Assembly (NCBI RefSeq): GCF_058153355.1
Contig: NZ_CM177019.1
DNA length: 64,000 nt
Reading direction: 5' to 3' (one strand)
The first letter of the stretch is position 1. Every line of letters begins with the position of its first letter. Positions 3,149 through 57,976 of the stretch are shown here, piece by piece. The notes below the pieces were generated by a model, which was given only the letters and a program-made list of their open reading frames with translations, did no database searches and was not told the DNA's origin. The translations under genes were made by a program, and so were the position numbers.

Positions 3149-3248
3149 GCCTGATACACCTCGTTTATCAGGCCTACATAGTCTGTGCAATGTATTGAAT
3201 TTGCACGATTTTGTAGGCTGGATAAGGCGTTCACGCCGCATCCGGCAT
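3149..3248. repeat. pair of REP (repetitive extragenic palindromic) elements in the gcvP-ygfF intergenic region
   Basis: gcctgatacacctcgtttatcaggcctac (3149-3177) and gtaggctggataaggcgttcacgccgcatccggca (3214-3248) match the E. coli REP consensus as recalled. Confidence 0.7.
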
Positions 3249-6806: not shown

Positions 6807-8185
<1,379 letters not shown>

Positions 8186-12403: not shown

Positions 12404-14137
12404 GTGAAACAACAGATACAACTTCGTCGCCGTGAAGTCGATGAAACGGCAGACTTGCCCGCTGAATTGCCTCCCTTGCTGCGCCGTTTATATGCCAGCC
12501 GGGGAGTACGCAGTGCGCAAGAACTGGAACGTAGTGTAAAAGGTATGCTGCCCTGGCAGCAACTGAGCGGCGTCGAAAAGGCCGTTGAGATCCTTTACAA
12601 CGCTTTTCGCGAAGGAACGCGGATTATGGTGGTCGGTGACTTCGACGCCGACGGTGCCACCAGCACGGCTCTAAGCGTGCTGGCGATGCGCTCGCTTGGT
12701 TGCAGCAATATCGACTACCTGGTACCAAACCGTTTCGAAGACGGTTACGGCTTAAGCCCGGAAGTGGTCGATCAGGCCCATGCCCGTGGCGCGCAGTTAA
12801 TTGTCACGGTGGATAACGGCATTTCCTCCCATGCGGGGGTTGAACATGCTCGATCGTTGGGCATTCCGGTTATTGTTACCGATCACCATTTGCCGGGCGA
12901 AACATTACCCGCGGCGGAAGCGATCATTAACCCTAACTTGCGCGACTGCAATTTCCCGTCGAAATCACTGGCAGGCGTGGGTGTGGCGTTTTATTTAATG
13001 CTGGCGCTGCGCACCTTTTTGCGTGATCAGGGCTGGTTTGATGAGCGCGGCATCGCAATTCCTAACCTGGCAGAACTGCTGGATCTGGTCGCGTTGGGGA
13101 CAGTGGCGGACGTCGTGCCGCTGGACGCTAATAATCGCATTCTGACCTGGCAGGGGATGAGTCGCATCCGTGCCGGAAAGTGCCGTCCAGGGATTAAAGC
13201 GTTGCTGGAAGTGGCCAACCGCGATGCGCAAAAACTCGCCGCCAGCGATTTAGGTTTTGCGCTGGGGCCACGTCTCAATGCAGCTGGGAGACTGGATGAT
13301 ATGTCCGTTGGTGTGGCGCTGTTGCTGTGCGACAACATCGGCGAAGCGCGAGTACTGGCAAATGAACTCGATGCGCTAAACCAGACGCGAAAAGAGATCG
13401 AACAGGGAATGCAGGTTGAAGCCCTGACCCTGTGCGAGAAACTGGAGCGCAGCCGCGACACGCTACCCGGCGGGCTGGCAATGTATCACCCGGAATGGCA
13501 TCAGGGCGTGGTTGGTATTCTGGCTTCGCGTATTAAAGAGCGTTTTCACCGTCCGGTTATCGCTTTTGCGCCTGCGGGTGACGGTACGCTGAAAGGTTCC
13601 GGTCGCTCCATTCAGGGGCTGCATATGCGTGATGCGCTGGAGCGGCTAGACACACTCTACCCCGGCATGATGCTGAAGTTTGGCGGTCATGCGATGGCGG
13701 CAGGCCTGTCGCTGGAAGAGGATAAATTCGAACTCTTTCAGCAACGGTTTGGCGAACTGGTTACTGAGTGGCTGGACCCTTCGCTATTGCAAGGCGAAGT
13801 GGTGTCAGACGGTCCGCTAAGCCCAGCCGAAATGACCATGGAAGTGGCGCAGCTGCTGCGCGATGCTGGCCCGTGGGGGCAGATGTTCCCGGAGCCGCTG
13901 TTTGACGGTCATTTCCGTCTGCTGCAACAGCGACTGGTGGGTGAACGTCATTTGAAAGTCATGGTCGAACCGGTCGGCGGCGGTCCGCTGCTGGACGGTA
14001 TTGCTTTTAATGTCGATACCGCCCTCTGGCCGGATAACGGCGTGCGCGAAGTGCAACTGGCTTACAAGCTGGATATCAACGAGTTTCGTGGCAACCGCAG
14101 CCTGCAAATTATCATCGACAATATCTGGCCAATTTAG
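12404..14137 (+). CDS. recJ: single-stranded-DNA-specific exonuclease RecJ
   Basis: 577-aa ORF, GTG start, DHH motifs (VVGDFDADGATS, DHH). Confidence 0.95.
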   Translation: MKQQIQLRRREVDETADLPAELPPLLRRLYASRGVRSAQELERSVKGMLPWQQLSGVEKAVEILYNAFREGTRIMVVGDFDADGATSTALSVLAMRSLGCSNIDYLVPNRFEDGYGLSPEVVDQAHARGAQLIVTVDNGISSHAGVEHARSLGIPVIVTDHHLPGETLPAAEAIINPNLRDCNFPSKSLAGVGVAFYLMLALRTFLRDQGWFDERGIAIPNLAELLDLVALGTVADVVPLDANNRILTWQGMSRIRAGKCRPGIKALLEVANRDAQKLAASDLGFALGPRLNAAGRLDDMSVGVALLLCDNIGEARVLANELDALNQTRKEIEQGMQVEALTLCEKLERSRDTLPGGLAMYHPEWHQGVVGILASRIKERFHRPVIAFAPAGDGTLKGSGRSIQGLHMRDALERLDTLYPGMMLKFGGHAMAAGLSLEEDKFELFQQRFGELVTEWLDPSLLQGEVVSDGPLSPAEMTMEVAQLLRDAGPWGQMFPEPLFDGHFRLLQQRLVGERHLKVMVEPVGGGPLLDGIAFNVDTALWPDNGVREVQLAYKLDINEFRGNRSLQIIIDNIWPI

Positions 14138-14227
14138 CGTCATATTATCTATAAAAAAGAGCGTGGATTGGGTACAATCCCGCTCTTATCACCGCATTTT
14201 GACTAGCTCAATAAAAGAAATCAGACC

Positions 14228-15326
14228 ATGTTTGAAATTAATCCGGTAAATAATCGCATTCAGGACCTCACGGAACGCTCCGACGTTCTTAGGGGGTATC
14301 TTTGACTACGACGCCAAGAAAGAGCGTCTGGAAGAAGTAAACGCCGAGCTGGAACAGCCGGATGTCTGGAACGAACCCGAACGCGCACAGGCGCTGGGTA
14401 AAGAGCGTTCCTCCCTCGAAGCCGTTGTCGACACCCTCGACCAAATGAAACAGGGGCTGGAAGATGTTTCTGGTCTGCTGGAGCTGGCTGTAGAAGCTGA
14501 CGACGAAGAAACCTTTAACGAAGCCGTTGCTGAACTCGACGCCCTGGAAGAAAAACTGGCGCAGCTTGAGTTCCGTCGTATGTTCTCTGGCGAATATGAT
14601 AGCGCCGACTGCTACCTCGATATTCAGGCAGGTTCTGGCGGTACGGAAGCACAGGACTGGGCGAGCATGCTTGAGCGTATGTATCTGCGCTGGGCTGAAT
14701 CGCGTGGTTTCAAAACTGAAATCATCGAAGAGTCGGAAGGTGAAGTGGCGGGTATTAAATCCGTGACTATCAAAATCTCCGGCGATTACGCTTACGGCTG
14801 GCTGCGTACTGAAACCGGCGTTCACCGCCTGGTGCGCAAGAGCCCGTTTGACTCCGGCGGTCGTCGCCACACGTCGTTCAGCTCCGCGTTTGTTTACCCG
14901 GAAGTCGATGATGATATCGATATCGAAATCAATCCGGCGGATCTGCGCATCGACGTTTATCGCGCATCCGGCGCGGGTGGTCAGCACGTTAACCGTACCG
15001 AATCTGCGGTGCGTATTACTCACATCCCAACCGGGATTGTGACCCAATGCCAGAACGACCGTTCCCAGCACAAGAACAAAGACCAGGCCATGAAGCAGAT
15101 GAAAGCGAAGCTTTATGAACTGGAGATGCAGAAGAAAAATGCCGAGAAACAGGCGATGGAAGATAACAAATCTGACATCGGCTGGGGCAGCCAGATTCGT
15201 TCTTATGTCCTTGATGACTCCCGCATTAAAGATCTGCGTACCGGGGTAGAAACTCGTAACACGCAGGCAGTGCTGGACGGCAGCCTGGATCAATTTATCG
15301 AAGCAAGTTTGAAAGCAGGGTTATGA
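14228..15326 (+). CDS. prfB: peptide chain release factor 2, requires programmed +1 ribosomal frameshift
   Basis: ATG at 14228; frame 0 reaches CUU UGA at 14300-14305, preceded by SD-like AGGGGG; the +1 frame from 14304 continues into the 293-aa ORF ending 15326, which contains the GGQ motif. Confidence 0.92.
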
Positions 15327-15335
15327 GGAACCAAC

Positions 15336-16853
15336 ATGTCTGAACAACACGCACAGGGCGCTGACGCGGTAGTCGATCTTAACAATGAACTGAAAACGCG
15401 TCGTGAGAAGCTGGCGAACCTGCGTGAGCAGGGGATTGCCTTCCCGAACGATTTCCGTCGCGATCATACCTCTGACCAATTGCACGCAGAATTCGACGGC
15501 AAAGAAAACGAAGAACTGGAAGCGCTGAACATCGAAGTTGCCGTTGCTGGCCGCATGATGACCCGCCGTATTATGGGTAAAGCGTCTTTCGTTACCCTGC
15601 AGGATGTGGGGGGCCGCATTCAGCTGTACGTTGCTCGTGACGATCTGCCGGAAGGCGTTTACAACGAGCAGTTCAAAAAATGGGACCTCGGCGATATCCT
15701 CGGCGCGAAAGGTAAACTGTTCAAAACCAAAACCGGCGAACTGTCTATCCACTGCACCGAGCTGCGTCTGCTGACCAAAGCACTGCGTCCGCTGCCGGAC
15801 AAATTCCACGGTTTGCAGGATCAGGAAGCGCGCTATCGTCAGCGTTATCTGGATCTCATTTCTAACGATGAATCCCGCAACACCTTTAAAGTGCGTTCGC
15901 AGATCCTCTCTGGCATTCGCCAGTTCATGGTGAATCGTGGCTTTATGGAAGTTGAAACGCCGATGATGCAGGTGATCCCAGGCGGCGCGGCGGCGCGTCC
16001 GTTTATCACCCATCACAATGCGCTGGATCTCGACATGTACTTGCGTATCGCGCCGGAACTGTACCTCAAGCGTCTGGTGGTTGGTGGCTTCGAGCGTGTA
16101 TTCGAAATCAACCGTAACTTCCGTAACGAAGGTATCTCCGTACGTCATAACCCAGAGTTCACCATGATGGAACTCTATATGGCTTACGCTGATTACAAAG
16201 ATCTGATCGAGCTGACCGAATCGCTGTTCCGTACTCTGGCACAGGATATTCTCGGTAAGACCGAAGTGACCTACGGCGACGTGACGCTGGACTTCGGTAA
16301 ACCGTTCGAAAAACTGACCATGCGTGAAGCGATCAAGAAATATCGCCCGGAAACCGACATGGCGGATCTGGACAACTTCGACTCTGCGAAAGCGATTGCT
16401 GAATCTATCGGCATCCACGTTGAGAAGAGCTGGGGTCTGGGCCGTATCGTTACCGAGATCTTCGAAGAAGTGGCAGAAGCACATCTGATCCAGCCGACCT
16501 TCATTACTGAATATCCGGCAGAAGTTTCTCCGCTGGCGCGTCGTAACGACGTTAACCCGGAAATCACTGACCGCTTTGAGTTCTTCATTGGTGGTCGTGA
16601 AATCGGTAACGGCTTTAGCGAGTTGAATGACGCGGAAGATCAGGCGCAGCGCTTCCTGGATCAGGTTGCCGCGAAAGACGCAGGCGACGACGAAGCGATG
16701 TTCTACGACGAAGATTACGTCACCGCACTGGAACACGGCTTACCGCCGACAGCAGGTCTGGGAATTGGTATCGACCGTATGGTAATGCTGTTCACCAACA
16801 GCCATACCATCCGCGACGTTATTCTGTTCCCGGCGATGCGTCCGGTGAAATAA
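15336..16853 (+). CDS. lysS: lysine--tRNA ligase (constitutive)
   Basis: 505-aa class II aa[38 protein letters not shown]... Confidence 0.95.
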
Positions 16854-16888
16854 GCATTACGTTATGCTCACAACCCCGGCAAATGTCG

Positions 16889-18314
16889 TAATGCCAGTCA
16901 GTTAAGCAACTGACTGGCTCTTTTTCGGGGCTGTGGGGTATTTCCAGGGCCTCTCCTTTACCACTCTCGGGAAGGCCCTTTCCCTTCTTGTCGGTAATTT
17001 CACAAGTTGTCCCATACTTGCAAGATCGCGCATCAGCTCCGGTATACGTCCCGGTGAAGCGCCCTGCAATGTCATCAGCATTCTCATCACCATTCCGCAT
17101 GATTCTGAGAAACTCAGTTGATTCGGCCAGTAACCTTTCAGATGTTCCGCCATTTTAATCATCTGATATCTCACCAGATTATAAGCCAGTAAGACACCCC
17201 ACAGCTCTTGCTCCACAAGCTCCGGCTTTTTACTTCTCAGCGTCAGCCTGCTCAGTTGCATCGTCTGTTTTATCTCCCTGTATCCCAGTTCGATTTCCCA
17301 GCGATGACTGTACAGATCCGCCATTTCTCCTCCGGGGAAGCGCATGGCGTCCGTCATCGACGTCAGCAGATGGCAGACTTTTCCTTTGCGCGTCACGGTC
17401 AGCAGGCGGGCTGTCACTTCATTTCCCAGTCCCGGCCACTTTTTTCGTGCCTGCGGGCTGGTTTTCAGCTTCACCAGATGATCGCCTTTACCCAGTTTTC
17501 TGATCTCTTCATATTGCGCTCCCTTTCTGAGAGGTATCATCCAGTGGCGGTGTTCTCCCGCCAGGCTCCAGGCATTTAACAGTCCCAGTGAGTAATAACC
17601 TTTATCCATTAACGTCAGAGTGTTATCGCCGGTTTGTTCTATAAGTTGCTCAGCAAGCTCATTTTCGCTGTTCTTCATCGTGCCGAAGGCTGCAGCCGTC
17701 AGCAGATGGCTGGTCAGTTCCATCTGGCAGACCATTTTGACCTGCGGGTAGAGCGCCGGGTTCCCGGCATGTGTCTGGCGGGGGAAGGCTGCATCGTTCT
17801 CTGGTGTATCCGGTGTGCGCCAGAACACACCATCGATGGCCAGCAGGGTCAGGCCGCACCAGTGCGGATGCGGCGTGGCGTTATGCCAGAGCTGCGCTGT
17901 TTTCGTGAACACGCGGCGGACAGCCTCACTTCCCAGGCGCTGGCGGGCCTGAATAACGGCACTGGGGGCAACGAAGGGGCGATTGCCCGGCAGCATGATG
18001 TCCAGGCGATTCACAATCTGGTGAAGAGGTTCTTTACGCTCAAGCGCCATGCCAACAATACACCAGACCATCATTTCGAGGGGAAGACGGCGCTTGCGTA
18101 GCGTTACAGTACCTGATTCGGCAAGGCAACGAGAGATGAGTTCGGGGTCGAGGTAATCCCCCAGAGAAGTCAGTGGGTTACGCAGAGAATCGTAACGGGA
18201 TACCAGATCAAGAGCCTGTCCAATGTGCATAAAAAAATCCGGAAACAAGTGAGCGTTTCCGGATTCTTACACAGCCACTGGATCGGTCAACTGATCCTTA
18301 ACTGATCGGCATTA
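16889..18314 (-). mobile_element. IS4 insertion sequence (1426 bp) with 12-bp target-site duplication
   Basis: Terminal inverted repeats taatgccagtcagttaag (16889-16906) and cttaactgatcggcatta (18297-18314); flanking direct repeat cggcaaatgtcg at 16877-16888 and 18315-18326. Confidence 0.9.
16902..18230 (-). CDS. insG: IS4 transposase (DDE)
   Basis: ORF 16902..18248; start assigned to the internal Met ([40 protein letters not shown]...), 442 aa, recognised as the IS4 transposase. Confidence 0.9.
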
Positions 18315-18333
18315 CGGCAAATGTCGGGGTTTT

Positions 18334-18877
18334 TTATTTAAGCTGGGTAAATGCAGATAATCGTTTTCTGGCTTCGCGATTTGTCGCCTGCATCACCATC
18401 CACGGACTGAACGCCCACGGCGTGGCATCAATACCGCGTAAAACCGCTGCTAAATCACACCATTGATAATCCATCACTTCATCATCGTTGATCTGTAACG
18501 CACTGGTCGTGCGTGCGGCAAATACCGGACATACTTCATTTCTACAATGCCATTCGGATCGGTGGCGCGATAGCGAAAGTCAGGATAGATTCAGGAGGTG
18601 TAATTTCCACGCCAAGCTCATAACGGCAACGGCGGATCACCGCGTCTTCGTTGCTTTCTCCCAGTTGTGGGTGCCCACAAACCGAGTTAGTCCACACGCC
18701 CGGCCATGCTTTTTTGCTAAGGGCGCGGCGGGTAACTAATAATTGCCCTTTGGCATTAAACAGCCAGCAGGAGAACGCGAGATGTAAGAGAGTGTCTGCC
18801 GTGTGTGCGGCATACTTTTCCAGCGTACCCGTGGGAACTCCCTGTGCATTCAATAAAATGACGTGTTCCGTTTGCAT
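18334..18877 (-). pseudogene. idi: isopentenyl-diphosphate delta-isomerase, disrupted by a frameshift
   Basis: N-terminal 98 residues match Idi ([28 protein letters not shown]...ITPPESI), then the frame stops at 18542. The remainder ([30 protein letters not shown]...AFTQLK*) continues in another frame to 18334. The break lies at gaatctatcctgac, which lacks the YP codons of intact Idi. Confidence 0.8.
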
Positions 18878-52706: not shown

Positions 52707-52780
52707 GCGGGCGTAGTTCAATGGTAGAACGAGAGCTTCCCAAGCTCTATACGAGGGTTCGATTCCCTTCGTCCGCTCCA
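52707..52780 (+). tRNA. glyU: tRNA-Gly (anticodon CCC)
   Basis: 74-nt sequence gcgggcgtagttcaatggtagaacgagagcttcccaagctctatacgagggttcgattcccttcgtccgctcca with cloverleaf arms and encoded CCA; the island starts immediately 3' of it. Confidence 0.92.
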
Positions 52781-52944
52781 AACAAACATTTCTCAACGTC
52801 TACTAAAGTCCATCAAACCCACGAGTATCAAGCCTTCCAGCCATTTTCATAGTTTATTAACGTCTACTCACAACTACCAGAATCTACACACAGAAGTGTA
52901 TAGTAATGCGTATAGGACAAAATTTATTTTTTGGAGCTATACAC

Positions 52945-54309
52945 ATGCTGCTTTCAGACCTTGCCATCAGGCGCGCGAAGCCGAAAGAAAAGGCTTATAC
53001 ACTCAATGACGGTAACGGGCTTTCGTTGCTCATTGAGCCGAACGGTTCGAAAGGGTGGCGACTGCGCTACAGGTTTGCAGGAAAGCCCAAAATGTTGTCG
53101 TTGGGTGTGTACCCTGATGTGTCTCTGTCTGATGCCAGGGCGGCAAGGGATGAGGCTAAAAGGCTTCTTGCTGGTGGTATAAATCCAAGTGAGGCCAGAA
53201 AAGCCCAAAAGCGAGAACAGGCGAGCAAATTTGGCAATACTTTTGAGGGTATCGCTCGCGAATGGTACGAAAAGCGGATCGACAGGTGGTCATCGTCATA
53301 CGCCGAGGAAATGATCGAGACGTTTGAAAAAGACGTTTTTCCGTACATTGGCGGTAGGCCGATCGCAGAAATTAAGCCGATGGAATTGCTGGCGGTTCTT
53401 TCCCGTCTTAATGACCGTGGTGCGACTGAAAAATTGCGTAAGGTTCGCCAGCGATGTGGCGAGGTGTTCCGGTACGCAATCATCACCGGACGCGCCGAAT
53501 ATAATCCAGCCCCTGACCTGGTGAGCGCATTTGCTCCACATAAAAAAGAGCATTACGCCTGTTTGAAGGCCGATGAACTGCCGGAATTTTTCCGCGTTTT
53601 TAATACGTACACCGGAAGCCAGATCGTCAAACTGGCAATGCGGCTATTAATTCTGACAGGTGTCAGACCCGGGGAATTACGGCAGGCAGAATGGCGGGAG
53701 ATCGATTTTGATAATCGTTTGTGGGAAGTGCCTAAAGAACGAATGAAGATGCGCCGTCCGCATTGCGTGCCATTACCAGAACAGGCGATAAAAATACTGG
53801 AGCAGTTAAAAAACATGACAGGTCAGTATCAGTTTATTTTCCCCGGTCGTATTCACCACAGTAAACCAATGAGTGAAATGGCAATGAATGTGCTCATTCG
53901 TCGTATTGGCTACGCCGGGCGCGTTACTGGTCATGGATTCCGGCACACCATGAGCACCATTTTGCATGAGCAGGGCTATAACACCGCGTGGATAGAGACA
54001 CAGCTTGCGCACGCCGATAAAAACTCAATTCGTGGCACATACAACCATGCGCAATATCTGGATGGCAGACGCGAAATGCTCCAGTGGTATGCCGACTATA
54101 TGGATTCGCTCGAGCATGGCGGAAATGTGGTGCATGGTGAGTTCGGAAAATGCGGGGGACTGGTTGAGTATACAGTAGTAGACTTTGAGCGACTAAAAAC
54201 GGCTGTGTCTAGGGTCGCTCCTGAAAACCCGTACACCTCTGCGGGCTGGCACAGCCACTATGGTAGAGGGCGCGAGGTGACGCGTGATCGATATTGCCGA
54301 ATTACTTAA
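52945..54309 (+). CDS. int: tyrosine-type site-specific integrase, P4-like (tRNA-associated)
   Basis: ORF 52906..54309; start assigned to ATG 52945 with GGAG 8 nt upstream (MLLSDLAIRRAKPKEKAYTLNDGNGLSLLIEPNGSKGWRLRYRF...); C-terminal catalytic residues (HGFRHTMST, Y in GTYNHAQY). Confidence 0.9.
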   Translation: MLLSDLAIRRAKPKEKAYTLNDGNGLSLLIEPNGSKGWRLRYRFAGKPKMLSLGVYPDVSLSDARAARDEAKRLLAGGINPSEARKAQKREQASKFGNTFEGIAREWYEKRIDRWSSSYAEEMIETFEKDVFPYIGGRPIAEIKPMELLAVLSRLNDRGATEKLRKVRQRCGEVFRYAIITGRAEYNPAPDLVSAFAPHKKEHYACLKADELPEFFRVFNTYTGSQIVKLAMRLLILTGVRPGELRQAEWREIDFDNRLWEVPKERMKMRRPHCVPLPEQAIKILEQLKNMTGQYQFIFPGRIHHSKPMSEMAMNVLIRRIGYAGRVTGHGFRHTMSTILHEQGYNTAWIETQLAHADKNSIRGTYNHAQYLDGRREMLQWYADYMDSLEHGGNVVHGEFGKCGGLVEYTVVDFERLKTAVSRVAPENPYTSAGWHSHYGRGREVTRDRYCRIT

Positions 54310-54604
54310 CGCAGAAAAGAATAATTTCATTAGCCTGAGAGAGTTAATAGAGCGTATTAAATTATCTCAACCGAAAGCTACTACATCCCAGATAGTAAGT
54401 TTTCTTTATCAGACGCGGCAGAAATTACCCGAATGGGTTAAGTGGGATGAAATGATGGGCATTGAGCAAACATCGGAGAATCCTTTTGATGGGGATTGGT
54501 CTTTATCAGAGGTTCTTGAAGGCATTTTAAGACTAGGCTTTGTGCCAGAGGTTGAAGATTCTGTACCCCTCGCTATCGATGATAGCGACGATATTCCGTA
54601 TTGA
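54284..54604 (+). CDS. hypothetical protein (106 aa, AT-rich gene; GTG start, overlaps int 3' end)
   Basis: ORF with SD-like gagg upstream of GTG 54284; no recognisable domain; start uncertain. Confidence 0.45.
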   Translation: MIDIAELLNAEKNNFISLRELIERIKLSQPKATTSQIVSFLYQTRQKLPEWVKWDEMMGIEQTSENPFDGDWSLSEVLEGILRLGFVPEVEDSVPLAIDDSDDIPY

Positions 54605-54623
54605 TGAAGACTTAAGGTGAATT

Positions 54624-55067
54624 ATGGCAGATGAAGTTTATTTGGCTCGTGCTTGTGATAAGTATGGTTTTCGTCGAGCAGAGCTTAAAGAATTTGCTGA
54701 AAAACTAGGGGTTAATTTATTTTCCCCAATGGATGAAATAACCCAGTCCATTCCTGAGGTTGCTGCTAGTGATTCTTTGAATAATGGGCCGACTGTTGAT
54801 GAATTACGTGCGGAAATTGCTTTACTTAAAGCGCGAATTGAAGAACTTGAAAGCGAACGACCAATTCTCTTAAATAAATACAGGGATAATGATCCGCTAT
54901 ATCTGGCTATCGAGATTAGAAACAGAGAGTGGGCCAATTACGACCCGGAGAATGATCGCGCCACCAGGGGAAACCAGGGCGCGATTACTACTGAGCTTGA
55001 AAAACGAGGTTTTACCTCCCGACAGGCCGCATCTATTGAGCTTGTCGCCTGTCCTATCAAACGATGA
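54624..55067 (+). CDS. hypothetical protein (147 aa, predicted coiled-coil segment)
   Basis: ATG with SD aaggtga 7 nt upstream; heptad-like VDELRAEIALLKARIEELESE; no recognisable domain. Confidence 0.55.
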   Translation: MADEVYLARACDKYGFRRAELKEFAEKLGVNLFSPMDEITQSIPEVAASDSLNNGPTVDELRAEIALLKARIEELESERPILLNKYRDNDPLYLAIEIRNREWANYDPENDRATRGNQGAITTELEKRGFTSRQAASIELVACPIKR

Positions 55068-55072
55068 AGCCT

Positions 55073-55219
55073 TACCCTAGAGGTATCTCATGTTTTGTTC
55101 GCGTCTCACCCTAAGGGTAATCAGACCTCACCCTTAGGGTATTTTTGTATGCTTTCCCATCAATTTTACTATTACCCTTAGGGTAAAAATATTCCCGATT
55201 ACCATTAGGCCTGAGGGTA
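55073..55219. promoter_or_regulatory. array of palindromic operator-like sites (consensus ACCCTwAGGGT) upstream of alpA
   Basis: Sites at 55073-55085 (taccctagaggta, imperfect), 55109-55119 (accctaagggt), 55130-55140 (acccttagggt), 55174-55184 (acccttagggt) and a half-site gagggta at 55213-55219. Confidence 0.6.
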
Positions 55220-55287
55220 TGAAAATATTCGTTATTTCTGTGCCATGATTACCTCGTCAAATTGAGTAGACGTTATGAGGTAAATAT

Positions 55288-55485
55288 ATGTCAAATACGC
55301 TTATTCGTTTAACGGAAGTTCAGCGTAGAACTGGATATAGCAAGGCATGGATTTATCGCCTTATGGGGCAAGGTAAATTTCCTGCATCAGTTAAAATTGG
55401 CTCGCGAGCTATTGCTTTCGTTGAGAGTGAAATTGACGAGTGGATTAATCAGCGTATTGCTGAATCACGCGGAACAGCTACCTGA
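55288..55485 (+). CDS. alpA: AlpA-family phage/island transcriptional regulator (excisionase-like HTH)
   Basis: 65-aa ORF MSNTLIRLTEVQRRTGYSKAWIYRLMGQGKFPASVKIGSRAIAFVESEIDEWI..., strong SD gaggtaaa. Confidence 0.85.
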   Translation: MSNTLIRLTEVQRRTGYSKAWIYRLMGQGKFPASVKIGSRAIAFVESEIDEWINQRIAESRGTAT

Positions 55486-55563
55486 TTAAATGGCTACGGG
55501 GCCAGAAGCCCCAGCTATCCACCAGCAAATAAAAAGTAACTTAATTCGATAGCAGGAGTTTTT

Positions 55564-56364
55564 ATGAAATTTCCAAAAACGCCCATACAGGGGCAGGGCT
55601 TCGTTCGGCTTGAAAACCAGAATCTGCAAAATTTTGGCAAAATTATCCCGGTTATTTCCGGCGTTATTGGCGGGCGTGAAACCAATATTGTTAGCGCCAG
55701 AGCGTTGCATAAGGCGCTCGGGGTAGGCCGTGATTTCACAACCTGGATTAAAGTACGCATTGATGAGTACGGATTTAAAAAGGGCGTGGATTTTGAATTC
55801 GTAGAAAATTTGACCTCCCCCAATCCGGTGAGCGCAAAATCTCGCCAACGTATAGAGCACGACTACCTGAGCACTATCAACATGGCGAAAGAACTGGCGA
55901 TGGTCGAACGCACCGAACAGGGCCGCGCCGTTCGTCAGTATTTCATCAAATGCGAGGAGGAGCTACACAAGGTAGCGCCTGTGCGTTCCGCAGCGTTACG
56001 CCGGGAACTGAAAGCCCGTATCACTGTTGCCAGCTACTTTAAGCCAATGTGCGCCGCGCTGGAGGCGTACCGGGCAGAACTGGGTAAAAACACTCTACAG
56101 CACCACTACACCACGGAAGCTAATATGCTGGCGCGTATCGTGCTGGGTGGCATGACTGCAAAACAGTGGGCACTGGCGAACGGCATCACAAGCGAACCAC
56201 GCGACCACATGAGCACGTTGCAGCTTGAGCACCTTTCTTACCTTGAGCAGAGCAATATCACGCTGATTGAGTTAGGCCAGGACTACCACCAGCGGAAAGC
56301 TGAATTAATTCGTCTTTCGCAGCGCTGGTTAGCCCGTCGCATGGAGGAAAACAACCATGTGTAA
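55564..56364 (+). CDS. phage antirepressor-like protein (AntA/KilAC-type domains)
   Basis: 266-aa ORF with SD aggag; N-terminal region resembles AntA/Bro-type antirepressor domain; assignment by recall, moderate confidence. Confidence 0.6.
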   Translation: MKFPKTPIQGQGFVRLENQNLQNFGKIIPVISGVIGGRETNIVSARALHKALGVGRDFTTWIKVRIDEYGFKKGVDFEFVENLTSPNPVSAKSRQRIEHDYLSTINMAKELAMVERTEQGRAVRQYFIKCEEELHKVAPVRSAALRRELKARITVASYFKPMCAALEAYRAELGKNTLQHHYTTEANMLARIVLGGMTAKQWALANGITSEPRDHMSTLQLEHLSYLEQSNITLIELGQDYHQRKAELIRLSQRWLARRMEENNHV

Positions 56365-57018
56365 CGCTCTGACCGTTACAAAAAGAGAAAGCGCCCCGTT
56401 GCCGGAGCGCCTTTGTGAACGAATAGCCTACTGCGCCATATTGCTTACTGTCTACGAGGCAGATTATAGCGTTGTGGTCGCACAGAGTGAAGGCACTGAT
56501 CACCGTTACTACAGCACGCCAGAAATGCAGAATATTTTGCTGCAAAATGCCGCTGGCCACGCTGTCCGGAAAGCAAAAAATTTTGCTGGTGGCGCGACTG
56601 ATACGATTTTTTCTGGTCGCCAGGTGCTGATCAATCTGATGTCTGATTTCGTTCTGGATAAAACAAAGGCGACCGCAGAGGGCCACCAGTGGGAAAGCTA
56701 CACACTTGAACACATCGCCAACAATGCCAGATTTGCGGCTGGTGGGCAATGTGATCAGTGTGTTGGCTTGCTGGTGGGCTGTTCGTCTGGTTCAGTCCGT
56801 TGCCATGCATGGAGTGAACGCATTTTCCAGGAATACTCTTTGAGGTACTTCTCAAGAGCAAACGCACACGGGGCGAATCTCTCCGGTTCATGTTCGTTTA
56901 CCGCATTTTTGCGTTGTTTTTTCCTGGATGAGGATAATTTCTTTAATGATTTGTCAGTCATCGTATATACCTGTAACCCTGTGCGCCACAGTTCACTGCA
57001 CCACGGCGCTGATGGTGA

Positions 57019-57198
57019 TTACTCTGATTCTTTGGCCTTGCGGCGCTGGCGGCGTTTGATCTCACCTTCAAGTGCCGAAACGATAAATTGTCCAGTGCTT
57101 TCGCCTTCTTCCTTTAAACTTTCTACAGCGTCAGCTATTGCATGGGGTACTCGTGCCTCAAGTTTTTTTGATTTTCCATTAACTGCTTTCGTTGCCAT
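57019..57198 (-). CDS. ribbon-helix-helix (CopG/Arc-like) DNA-binding protein
   Basis: 59 aa MATKAVNGKSKKLEARVPHAIADAVESLKEEGESTGQFIVSALEGEIKRRQRRKAKESE; beta-strand then two helices typical of RHH; SD aaggga upstream; divergent from the promoter at 57260-57288. Confidence 0.6.
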   Translation of the reverse strand: MATKAVNGKSKKLEARVPHAIADAVESLKEEGESTGQFIVSALEGEIKRRQRRKAKESE

Positions 57199-57219
57199 AT
57201 CTGATTCCCTTGTTATTAG

Positions 57220-57299
57220 GTGGCTGACAGTATACACACAAGAAAATGGAAAAACACTATTGACGTGGCTGACACCTGTTACTAGTATAGTGGCTGACA
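57220..57299 (+). promoter_or_regulatory. near-consensus sigma70 promoter (TTGACG-17 bp-TAGTAT) overlapped by three direct repeats GTGGCTGACA
   Basis: -35 ttgacg 57260-57265, -10 tagtat 57283-57288; direct repeats at 57220-57229, 57265-57274 and 57290-57299. Confidence 0.6.
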
Positions 57300-57562
57300 C
57301 CTTTATTAAGGTAATCGATGAAAAGACAAAGCCCGCAGGCGCTACCAACACCAACGGGCTTCTAACCACCAACGATAGAAAGCGTATCGAGGTAGCTATG
57401 TTAAATCATACCACACACCCGCAAGGGCGGGACTCGCACAACCTGAATAAAGCGGGGGTAAAAAACCAGTTGATCGCCACTGCCAGCCAGGGCTATGATT
57501 TATCTGCACCAGCAAAATCTGGTGCCCGGATTGGCGTCCTGAAAATTCTGAAGGCGACATAT

Positions 57563-57584
57563 GACGCGCCGAGCGTCTTTTTTT
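57563..57584 (+). terminator. intrinsic terminator-like hairpin plus T-run inside the leader downstream of the promoter
   Basis: gacgcgccgagcgtc (5-bp stem) followed by ttttttt. Confidence 0.45.
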
Positions 57585-57787
57585 ATGTCGTAGGTCTGAC
57601 TCACCCATTTTTTGGGCGTTGGTGTATAATCCAGCGCCTTTGTCAATCAATGGTGGCTCAGGCGGGGGCTTCTTCGGAAGCGCCGGTATCCTTCAGAGCC
57701 GGTTACGCCAACCCTGTCTGGGCTACCACCAGCGAAATTGGCGTTTCCGGTGGTAGCGTAACCTGCTATCTGAAGGAGGCTGCCGAC

Positions 57788-57976
57788 ATGGCTACTACCC
57801 CTACCCTTGTACATTCTCAAACCGTCTTTCTCTGGCGCTTTATCGCCCTGAGCACAGCACAACCGCGCGTGATTCACATCGTGGCCACCAGCGAACAGGA
57901 AGCCCGCCAGCAATCTCCGGCTGGCTGCGTGATGGTATTCGCCGCCCGTATTCGTCAGGAGGTGGGCCATGATTAA
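57788..57976 (+). CDS. small hypothetical protein (62 aa) of the island early operon
   Basis: ATG 57788 preceded by SD gaaggagg; stop overlaps the next start (atgattaa). Confidence 0.55.
   Translation: MATTPTLVHSQTVFLWRFIALSTAQPRVIHIVATSEQEARQQSPAGCVMVFAARIRQEVGHD

Follow-up and report, generated by a model that had tools for sequence, protein, structure and literature searches.

The prfB gene in this DNA carries a +1 frameshift site. The site is almost certainly the known programmed +1 ribosomal frameshift site of prfB, through which release factor 2 (RF2) regulates its own synthesis. The prfB gene is the textbook case of both programmed +1 frameshifting and release-factor autoregulation. 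The site found here belongs to the known prfB recoding family, of which it is the type sequence, and it adds nothing new to that family. All of the testable defining features of a prfB recoding site are present. The consequence is for annotation only. The gene should be written as the two-segment join given in Table 1, and two mis-annotations should be avoided: a 25-aa open reading frame (ORF) accompanied by a 293-aa fragment, and a pseudogene. We use "the window" for the whole 64,000-nucleotide stretch of DNA that was analysed.

A canonical recoding site interrupts the prfB reading frame

Direct reading of the sequence gives c-t-t-AGGGGG-TAT-CTT-TGA-C at positions 14288-14306. An earlier note on this DNA had placed CUU UGA C at 14300-14306 and a Shine-Dalgarno (SD)-like AGGGGG at 14291-14296, and both placements proved exact on re-reading. 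CTT occupies 14300-14302, TGA occupies 14303-14305, and the following C is at 14306. Counted from the ATG at 14228, the in-frame UGA is codon 26. The AGGGGG element lies 3 nt from CUU and 6 nt from the stop, and it is this 3-nt gap ahead of CTTT that is conserved (PMC12421855). With every sequence element at its canonical spacing, the site is intact, as had been claimed.

The two reading frames overlap at this point. After a TAA stop at 14247-14249, the +1 frame stays open over 14250-15326. It contains no ATG, GTG, or TTG between 14250 and 14444, and its first start is the ATG at 14445. A program-made ORF list reports only two ORFs at prfB, one of 25 aa (14228-14305) and one of 293 aa (14445-15326). 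The recoding site had been offered as the explanation of the 293-aa fragment, and the layout of the frames bears this out. The fragment appears in the list because start codons are lacking from the +1 frame between the TAA and the ATG at 14445. For the same lack of a start codon, independent initiation cannot yield RF2 residues 26-72. On the minus strand, a 334-aa ORF (14289-15293) lies wholly opposite prfB and has no Pfam match; it was treated as a shadow ORF.

Folding of positions 14260-14360 gave -28.6 kcal/mol (z = -0.66 relative to shuffles), hence no significant local RNA structure across this interval. The result is consistent with a mechanism that relies on linear elements alone. At Rfam gathering thresholds, no family was found at the prfB site when the whole window was scanned. 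Rfam holds no family for this site, so the scan is uninformative either way and supplies no covariance-model confirmation; a covariance-model match is not expected for a linear motif. Predicted promoters and terminators were no more numerous in a scan of 13900-15500 than in shuffles. The single promoter-like match, at 14088-14115 within the 3' end of recJ, is unsupported, and the scan thus did not locate the prfB promoter.

Table 1. Features of the prfB locus, in window coordinates
Feature	Position	Strand	Basis or remark
Whole prfB (RF2)	join(14228..14302, 14304..15326), span 14228..15326	+	365 aa plus stop
Frame-0 ORF, 25 codons, ending at the in-frame UGA	14228..14305	+	ORF list and translation
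+1 frame already open 5' of the shift site, no start codon	14250..14303	+	Preceding stop TAA 14247-14249
Internal Shine-Dalgarno-like AGGGGG	14291..14296	+	Sequence read; agrees with the prfB-site consensus AGGGGG in PMC12421855
Spacer UAU, 3 bases, Tyr codon 24	14297..14299	+	Would be the E-site codon while CUU is in the P site
Slippery sequence CUU-U	14300..14303	+	Sequence read and literature; P-site tRNA-Leu would move from CUU to UUU
RF2-specific UGA followed by C, weak termination context	14303..14306	+	Sequence read and literature
+1-frame ORF, 340 codons, C-terminal ...SLKAGL	14304..15326	+	Stop TGA 15324-15326; translation
RF2 residue 246 codon (Ala)	14964-14966	+	Comparison with K-12 RF2
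lysS (lysine-tRNA ligase, 505 aa)	15336..16853	+	9 bases past the prfB stop; same gene pair in K-12

The joined frames encode RF2

The +1 frame had been said to carry the remainder of RF2. It does so: 340 codons run from the GAC at 14304, and the protein obtained by joining them to the 25 leader codons aligns over residues 1-365. This 365-aa product scores 525.9 bits on the NCBIfam model TIGR00020 (prfB), whose curated cut-off is 370 bits, and the match (residues 12-362) spans the junction. The models for release factor 1 (RF1) give 304-306 bits on the same protein, under their own cut-offs of 400-423. Both Pfam domains, PCRF (207.5 bits) and RF-1 (146 bits), are found in the joined protein. 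Its alignment with solved E. coli RF2 structures, PDB 1gqe and 1ml5 among them, covers residues 1-365 and is gapless at the junction, ...RGYL|DYDAKK.... The stop-codon recognition tripeptide SPF is at residues 205-207 and the catalytic motif GGQ at 250-252. These matches identify the predicted joined product as a complete release factor, of the RF2 type and not the RF1 type.

The +1-frame product is identical to K-12 RF2 at 339 of 340 positions. The sole difference is at residue 246, an alanine here and a threonine in K-12. Either Ala or Ser at this position is the state of all non-K-12 lineages, and the Ala246 protein is the more active form (PMC5373646). Since the window encodes Ala246 and not the K-12-specific Thr246, its source is no K-12 derivative.

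The gene has the K-12 layout

The earlier note had proposed a comparison with annotated prfB. From the ATG at 14228 through the site to 14460, the DNA is identical to prfB of K-12 MG1655 (b2891), and the layout is the same in both: 25 codons, CUU UGA C, and 340 codons. The identity over 14228-14460 with the characterised K-12 gene, together with the completeness of the joined product, upholds the reading of this as the classical prfB recoding site. RefSeq, for its part, annotates the matching prfB sequence as a two-piece coding sequence (CDS) both in the best E. coli match and in MG1655. A "programmed frameshift" note accompanies PGAP-annotated records, the closest E. coli match among them, and is lacking from the MG1655 entry.

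The neighbours are also those of K-12, with recJ upstream and lysS downstream, and the genes 5' of prfB (xerD, dsbC, and recJ) are as in E. coli. Three single-nucleotide polymorphisms distinguish the window from MG1655 in the recJ-prfB intergenic region. This spacer contains a hairpin, AGAGCGTGGATTGGGTACAATCCCGCTCT, at 14157-14187, with an A6 run before it. Read on the minus strand, 14157-14187 is a terminator-like hairpin plus a T-run, and there is no converging minus-strand gene; the hairpin is possibly a recJ terminator or a REP-like element. At the other end of the gene, an SD-like GAGGA overlaps the prfB stop (ttaTGAGGAaccaacATG, window 15324-15338), and the lysS ATG is at 15336. Such a layout could permit translation of lysS to be coupled to that of full-length prfB.

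The motif is fixed while the protein diverges

A 1,301-base region containing prfB was found once each in 5,425 of 5,426 complete E. coli genomes, the remaining genome having no match to it at all. Identity to the window across this region reaches 99% or more in only 10 of the 5,425. Because so few are this close, the source may come from an Escherichia lineage that has been sequenced less often. The 32-mer around the site (14277-14308) was matched at a threshold of at least 99% identity in 5,416 of the 5,426 genomes, once per genome and in every case under an annotated prfB. The common polymorphism near the site is a synonymous one, TAC/TAT at 14309.

The prfB region is present without a 32-mer match in E. 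coli BH100 substr. MG2014 and eight other genomes. In BH100 substr. MG2014 (NZ_CP024650.2, locus 267-378) the SD-like element of prfB reads GGGG, not GGGGG, and this places the whole gene in one frame (…LRGIFDY…). In RefSeq this prfB is an ordinary CDS, with no programmed frameshift annotated. Either the missing G is a homopolymer error, or this strain has naturally lost RF2 autoregulation.

Beyond E. coli, the exact 16-mer AGGGGGTATCTTTGAC occurs in at least 120 other species in a scan of one genome per species. The matches listed come from Gamma- and Betaproteobacteria, Bacteroidota, Nitrospirae, Rickettsiales, and others. At 115 of the 120 loci listed, translation in the +1 frame from the motif's GAC gives a homologue of RF2 residues 26-365, with a median identity of 70%. 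The alignment begins no more than 5 residues from the junction in 114 of the 115 homologous loci listed, and the frame-0 leader is 24-27 codons long in most of the listed loci. The other five of the 120 comprise three that are truncated by a contig end and two that resemble chance matches. The motif therefore does not differ between this site and the prfB sites of the other bacteria listed, although their proteins have diverged to that median of 70%. An exact 16-mer retained alongside an RF2 of this identity indicates that, among the matches listed, the nucleotides are fixed and the protein is divergent.

This conservation of the nucleotide motif agrees with a published survey of 12,753 genomes, in which the hyper-conserved arrangement of AGGGGG, 3 nt, CTTT, TGA, and C was present in 64% (PMC12421855). 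The same survey names Actinomycetota and Mycoplasmatota as lineages without the prfB site.

Alternative explanations of the frame break

A single-base discontinuity in a reading frame resembles an indel error. Indels are reported at the prfB site, as in the BH100 substr. MG2014 assembly, which is one G off in the G5 run, and idi, a nearby gene in the window, also has apparent frameshifts. The break could accordingly be read as a disabling mutation or as a sequencing or assembly error, making prfB a pseudogene or mis-assembled. We regard this as very improbable. The identical break is present in K-12 MG1655 and in the 5,416 complete E. coli genomes, it recurs where the RF2 frames join in 115 of the other species listed, and it falls exactly at the conserved recoding motif. 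RF2 function, moreover, is essential, and a second prfB was not seen. Because the frame break is conserved base for base, a pseudogene and a sequencing error are both excluded in favour of the programmed site. An equally slight chance attaches to the reading that there are two genes here, a 25-codon leader ORF and an RF2 initiated independently in the +1 frame, for example as a 293-aa protein from the ATG at 14445. The ORF list consists of precisely these two ORFs. The +1 frame, however, is devoid of ATG, GTG, and TTG over the whole of 14250-14444, and 14304-14444 encodes RF2 residues 26-72, 47 codons identical to those of K-12. The solved RF2 structures run from residue 1 to 365 through the junction, residues 26-72 included, and the TIGR00020 match likewise crosses it. 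Independent initiation is excluded because no start precedes 14445 and because the 47 intervening codons are conserved and present in crystal structures.

The motif might also be a chance occurrence with no recoding role, a reading to which we give even less weight than to the other two. Bare CTTTGAC is indeed common, with nine copies in the window on the two strands together. Only one of the nine, the prfB site, has GGGGG 3 bases upstream, and GGGGG-N3-CTTTGA is correspondingly found nowhere else in the window. The full 16-mer AGGGGGTATCTTTGAC occurs a single time in the 64-kb window even when two mismatches are permitted, against an expectation of 0.02 per window from shuffles. Its one copy is located exactly where two RF2-coding frames overlap. 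Position and conservation together exclude a chance occurrence, and the programmed frameshift site of prfB is the reading that we retain.

Probable mechanism of frameshifting and autoregulation

For the identical K-12 sequence, the shift and the dependence of its efficiency on RF2 are experimentally established, according to the account that PMC12421855 gives of Craigen & Caskey 1986, Weiss et al. 1987, and Marquez et al. 2004. That account also credits Craigen et al. 1985 and Craigen & Caskey 1986 with the junction-spanning peptide of K-12 RF2. By analogy with this literature we infer that the frameshift event, the role of pairing between the SD-like element and the anti-SD, and autoregulation would all operate likewise in the source strain. 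The steps below follow the mechanism as PMC12421855 summarises it from Craigen & Caskey 1986, Weiss et al. 1987, Poole et al. 1995, and Marquez et al. 2004.

Translation would initiate at the ATG at 14228, and 25 codons would be read. At that point CUU, paired with tRNA-Leu, would fill the P site and UGA the A site. With a C after it, this UGA would be a poor termination signal, decoded by RF2 alone. When RF2 is plentiful, termination would follow and a 25-residue peptide would be released. When RF2 is scarce, the ribosome would pause. AGGGGG, 3 bases upstream, would pair with the 16S rRNA anti-SD and favour release of the E-site tRNA. The P-site tRNA-Leu would re-pair one base downstream, moving from CUU to UUU. 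GAC (14304-14306) would be decoded next, and translation in the +1 frame would yield the 365-aa full-length RF2. With termination when RF2 is abundant and a shift when it is scarce, RF2 would control the rate of its own synthesis. The 64-kb window contains no rRNA genes, hence the 16S anti-SD lies outside it; CCUCC is expected at the 3' end of the 16S rRNA, as in an Escherichia genome.

A departure from K-12 is conceivable in the set-point of frameshifting, or in the 3' end or stability of the mRNA of prfB-lysS, since Ala246 RF2 is more active and the lysS terminator hairpin has been lost to an IS4 element (16889-18314). We think such a difference rather unlikely, and the recoding site would still be the known one.

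Two other recoding sites resemble prfB in part. The eukaryotic ornithine decarboxylase antizyme gene likewise uses an autoregulatory +1 shift at an in-frame UGA, with an efficiency set by the end product or sensor. Unlike in prfB, the sensor there is polyamines and not RF2. The stimulators differ as well, being a downstream pseudoknot and an upstream element in antizyme and SD/anti-SD pairing in prfB, and the two systems are not known to be homologous. The -1 site of E. coli dnaX has, like prfB, an internal SD-like stimulator upstream of its slippery site. It differs from prfB in direction (-1), in its heptamer (A AAA AAG), in a longer SD spacing, and in having no known competition from a stop codon. 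The dnaX site also requires a downstream stem-loop, in contrast to prfB, where folding of 14260-14360 gave no significant structure. The dnaX site is cited in PMC12421855.

An IS4 insertion and other features of the window

The IS4 element is 1,426 bp long (16889-18314) and is inserted 24-35 bases past the lysS stop. Its transposase ORF lies on the minus strand (16902-18248, 448 aa) and contains Nterm_IS4 and DDE_Tnp_1 domains. The element is flanked by a 12-bp direct repeat, the target duplication cggcaaatgtcg, at 16877-16888 and 18315-18326. It interrupts the hairpin (CCCCGGCAAATGTCGGGG, with a T-run) that is predicted as the lysS/idi terminator; E. coli 24A16CRGN010 retains this hairpin uninterrupted. 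IS4 is found at the same junction in four complete E. coli genomes, of which MS 21-1 is 100% identical across the junction. A shared lineage could explain the common junction, as could a hot spot for insertion.

Beyond IS4, idi (isopentenyl-diphosphate isomerase, about 18334-18877, minus strand) differs from its counterpart in E. coli 24A16CRGN010 by two deletions. One, of 4 bases, removes one ATCTATCT unit, and the other, of a single base, falls in an A-run. The ORF that remains is 111 aa long (18542-18877). Either idi is a pseudogene or the deletions are sequencing errors.

Further along the window, a tRNA-Gly(CCC) gene (52707-52780) is followed by a 467-aa ORF (52906-54309). RNA matches past the tRNA gene are int-alpA (54202-54269), isrK (57506-57583), and C4 antisense RNA (57646-57733). 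This arrangement suggests a P4-like integrated element at glyU, spanning 52707-57976 of the window. Rfam matches were also obtained at 8030-8107, to naRNA4/CssrE (both strands, a REP-type element), and at 3170-3212, to the ES036/CssrF sRNA.
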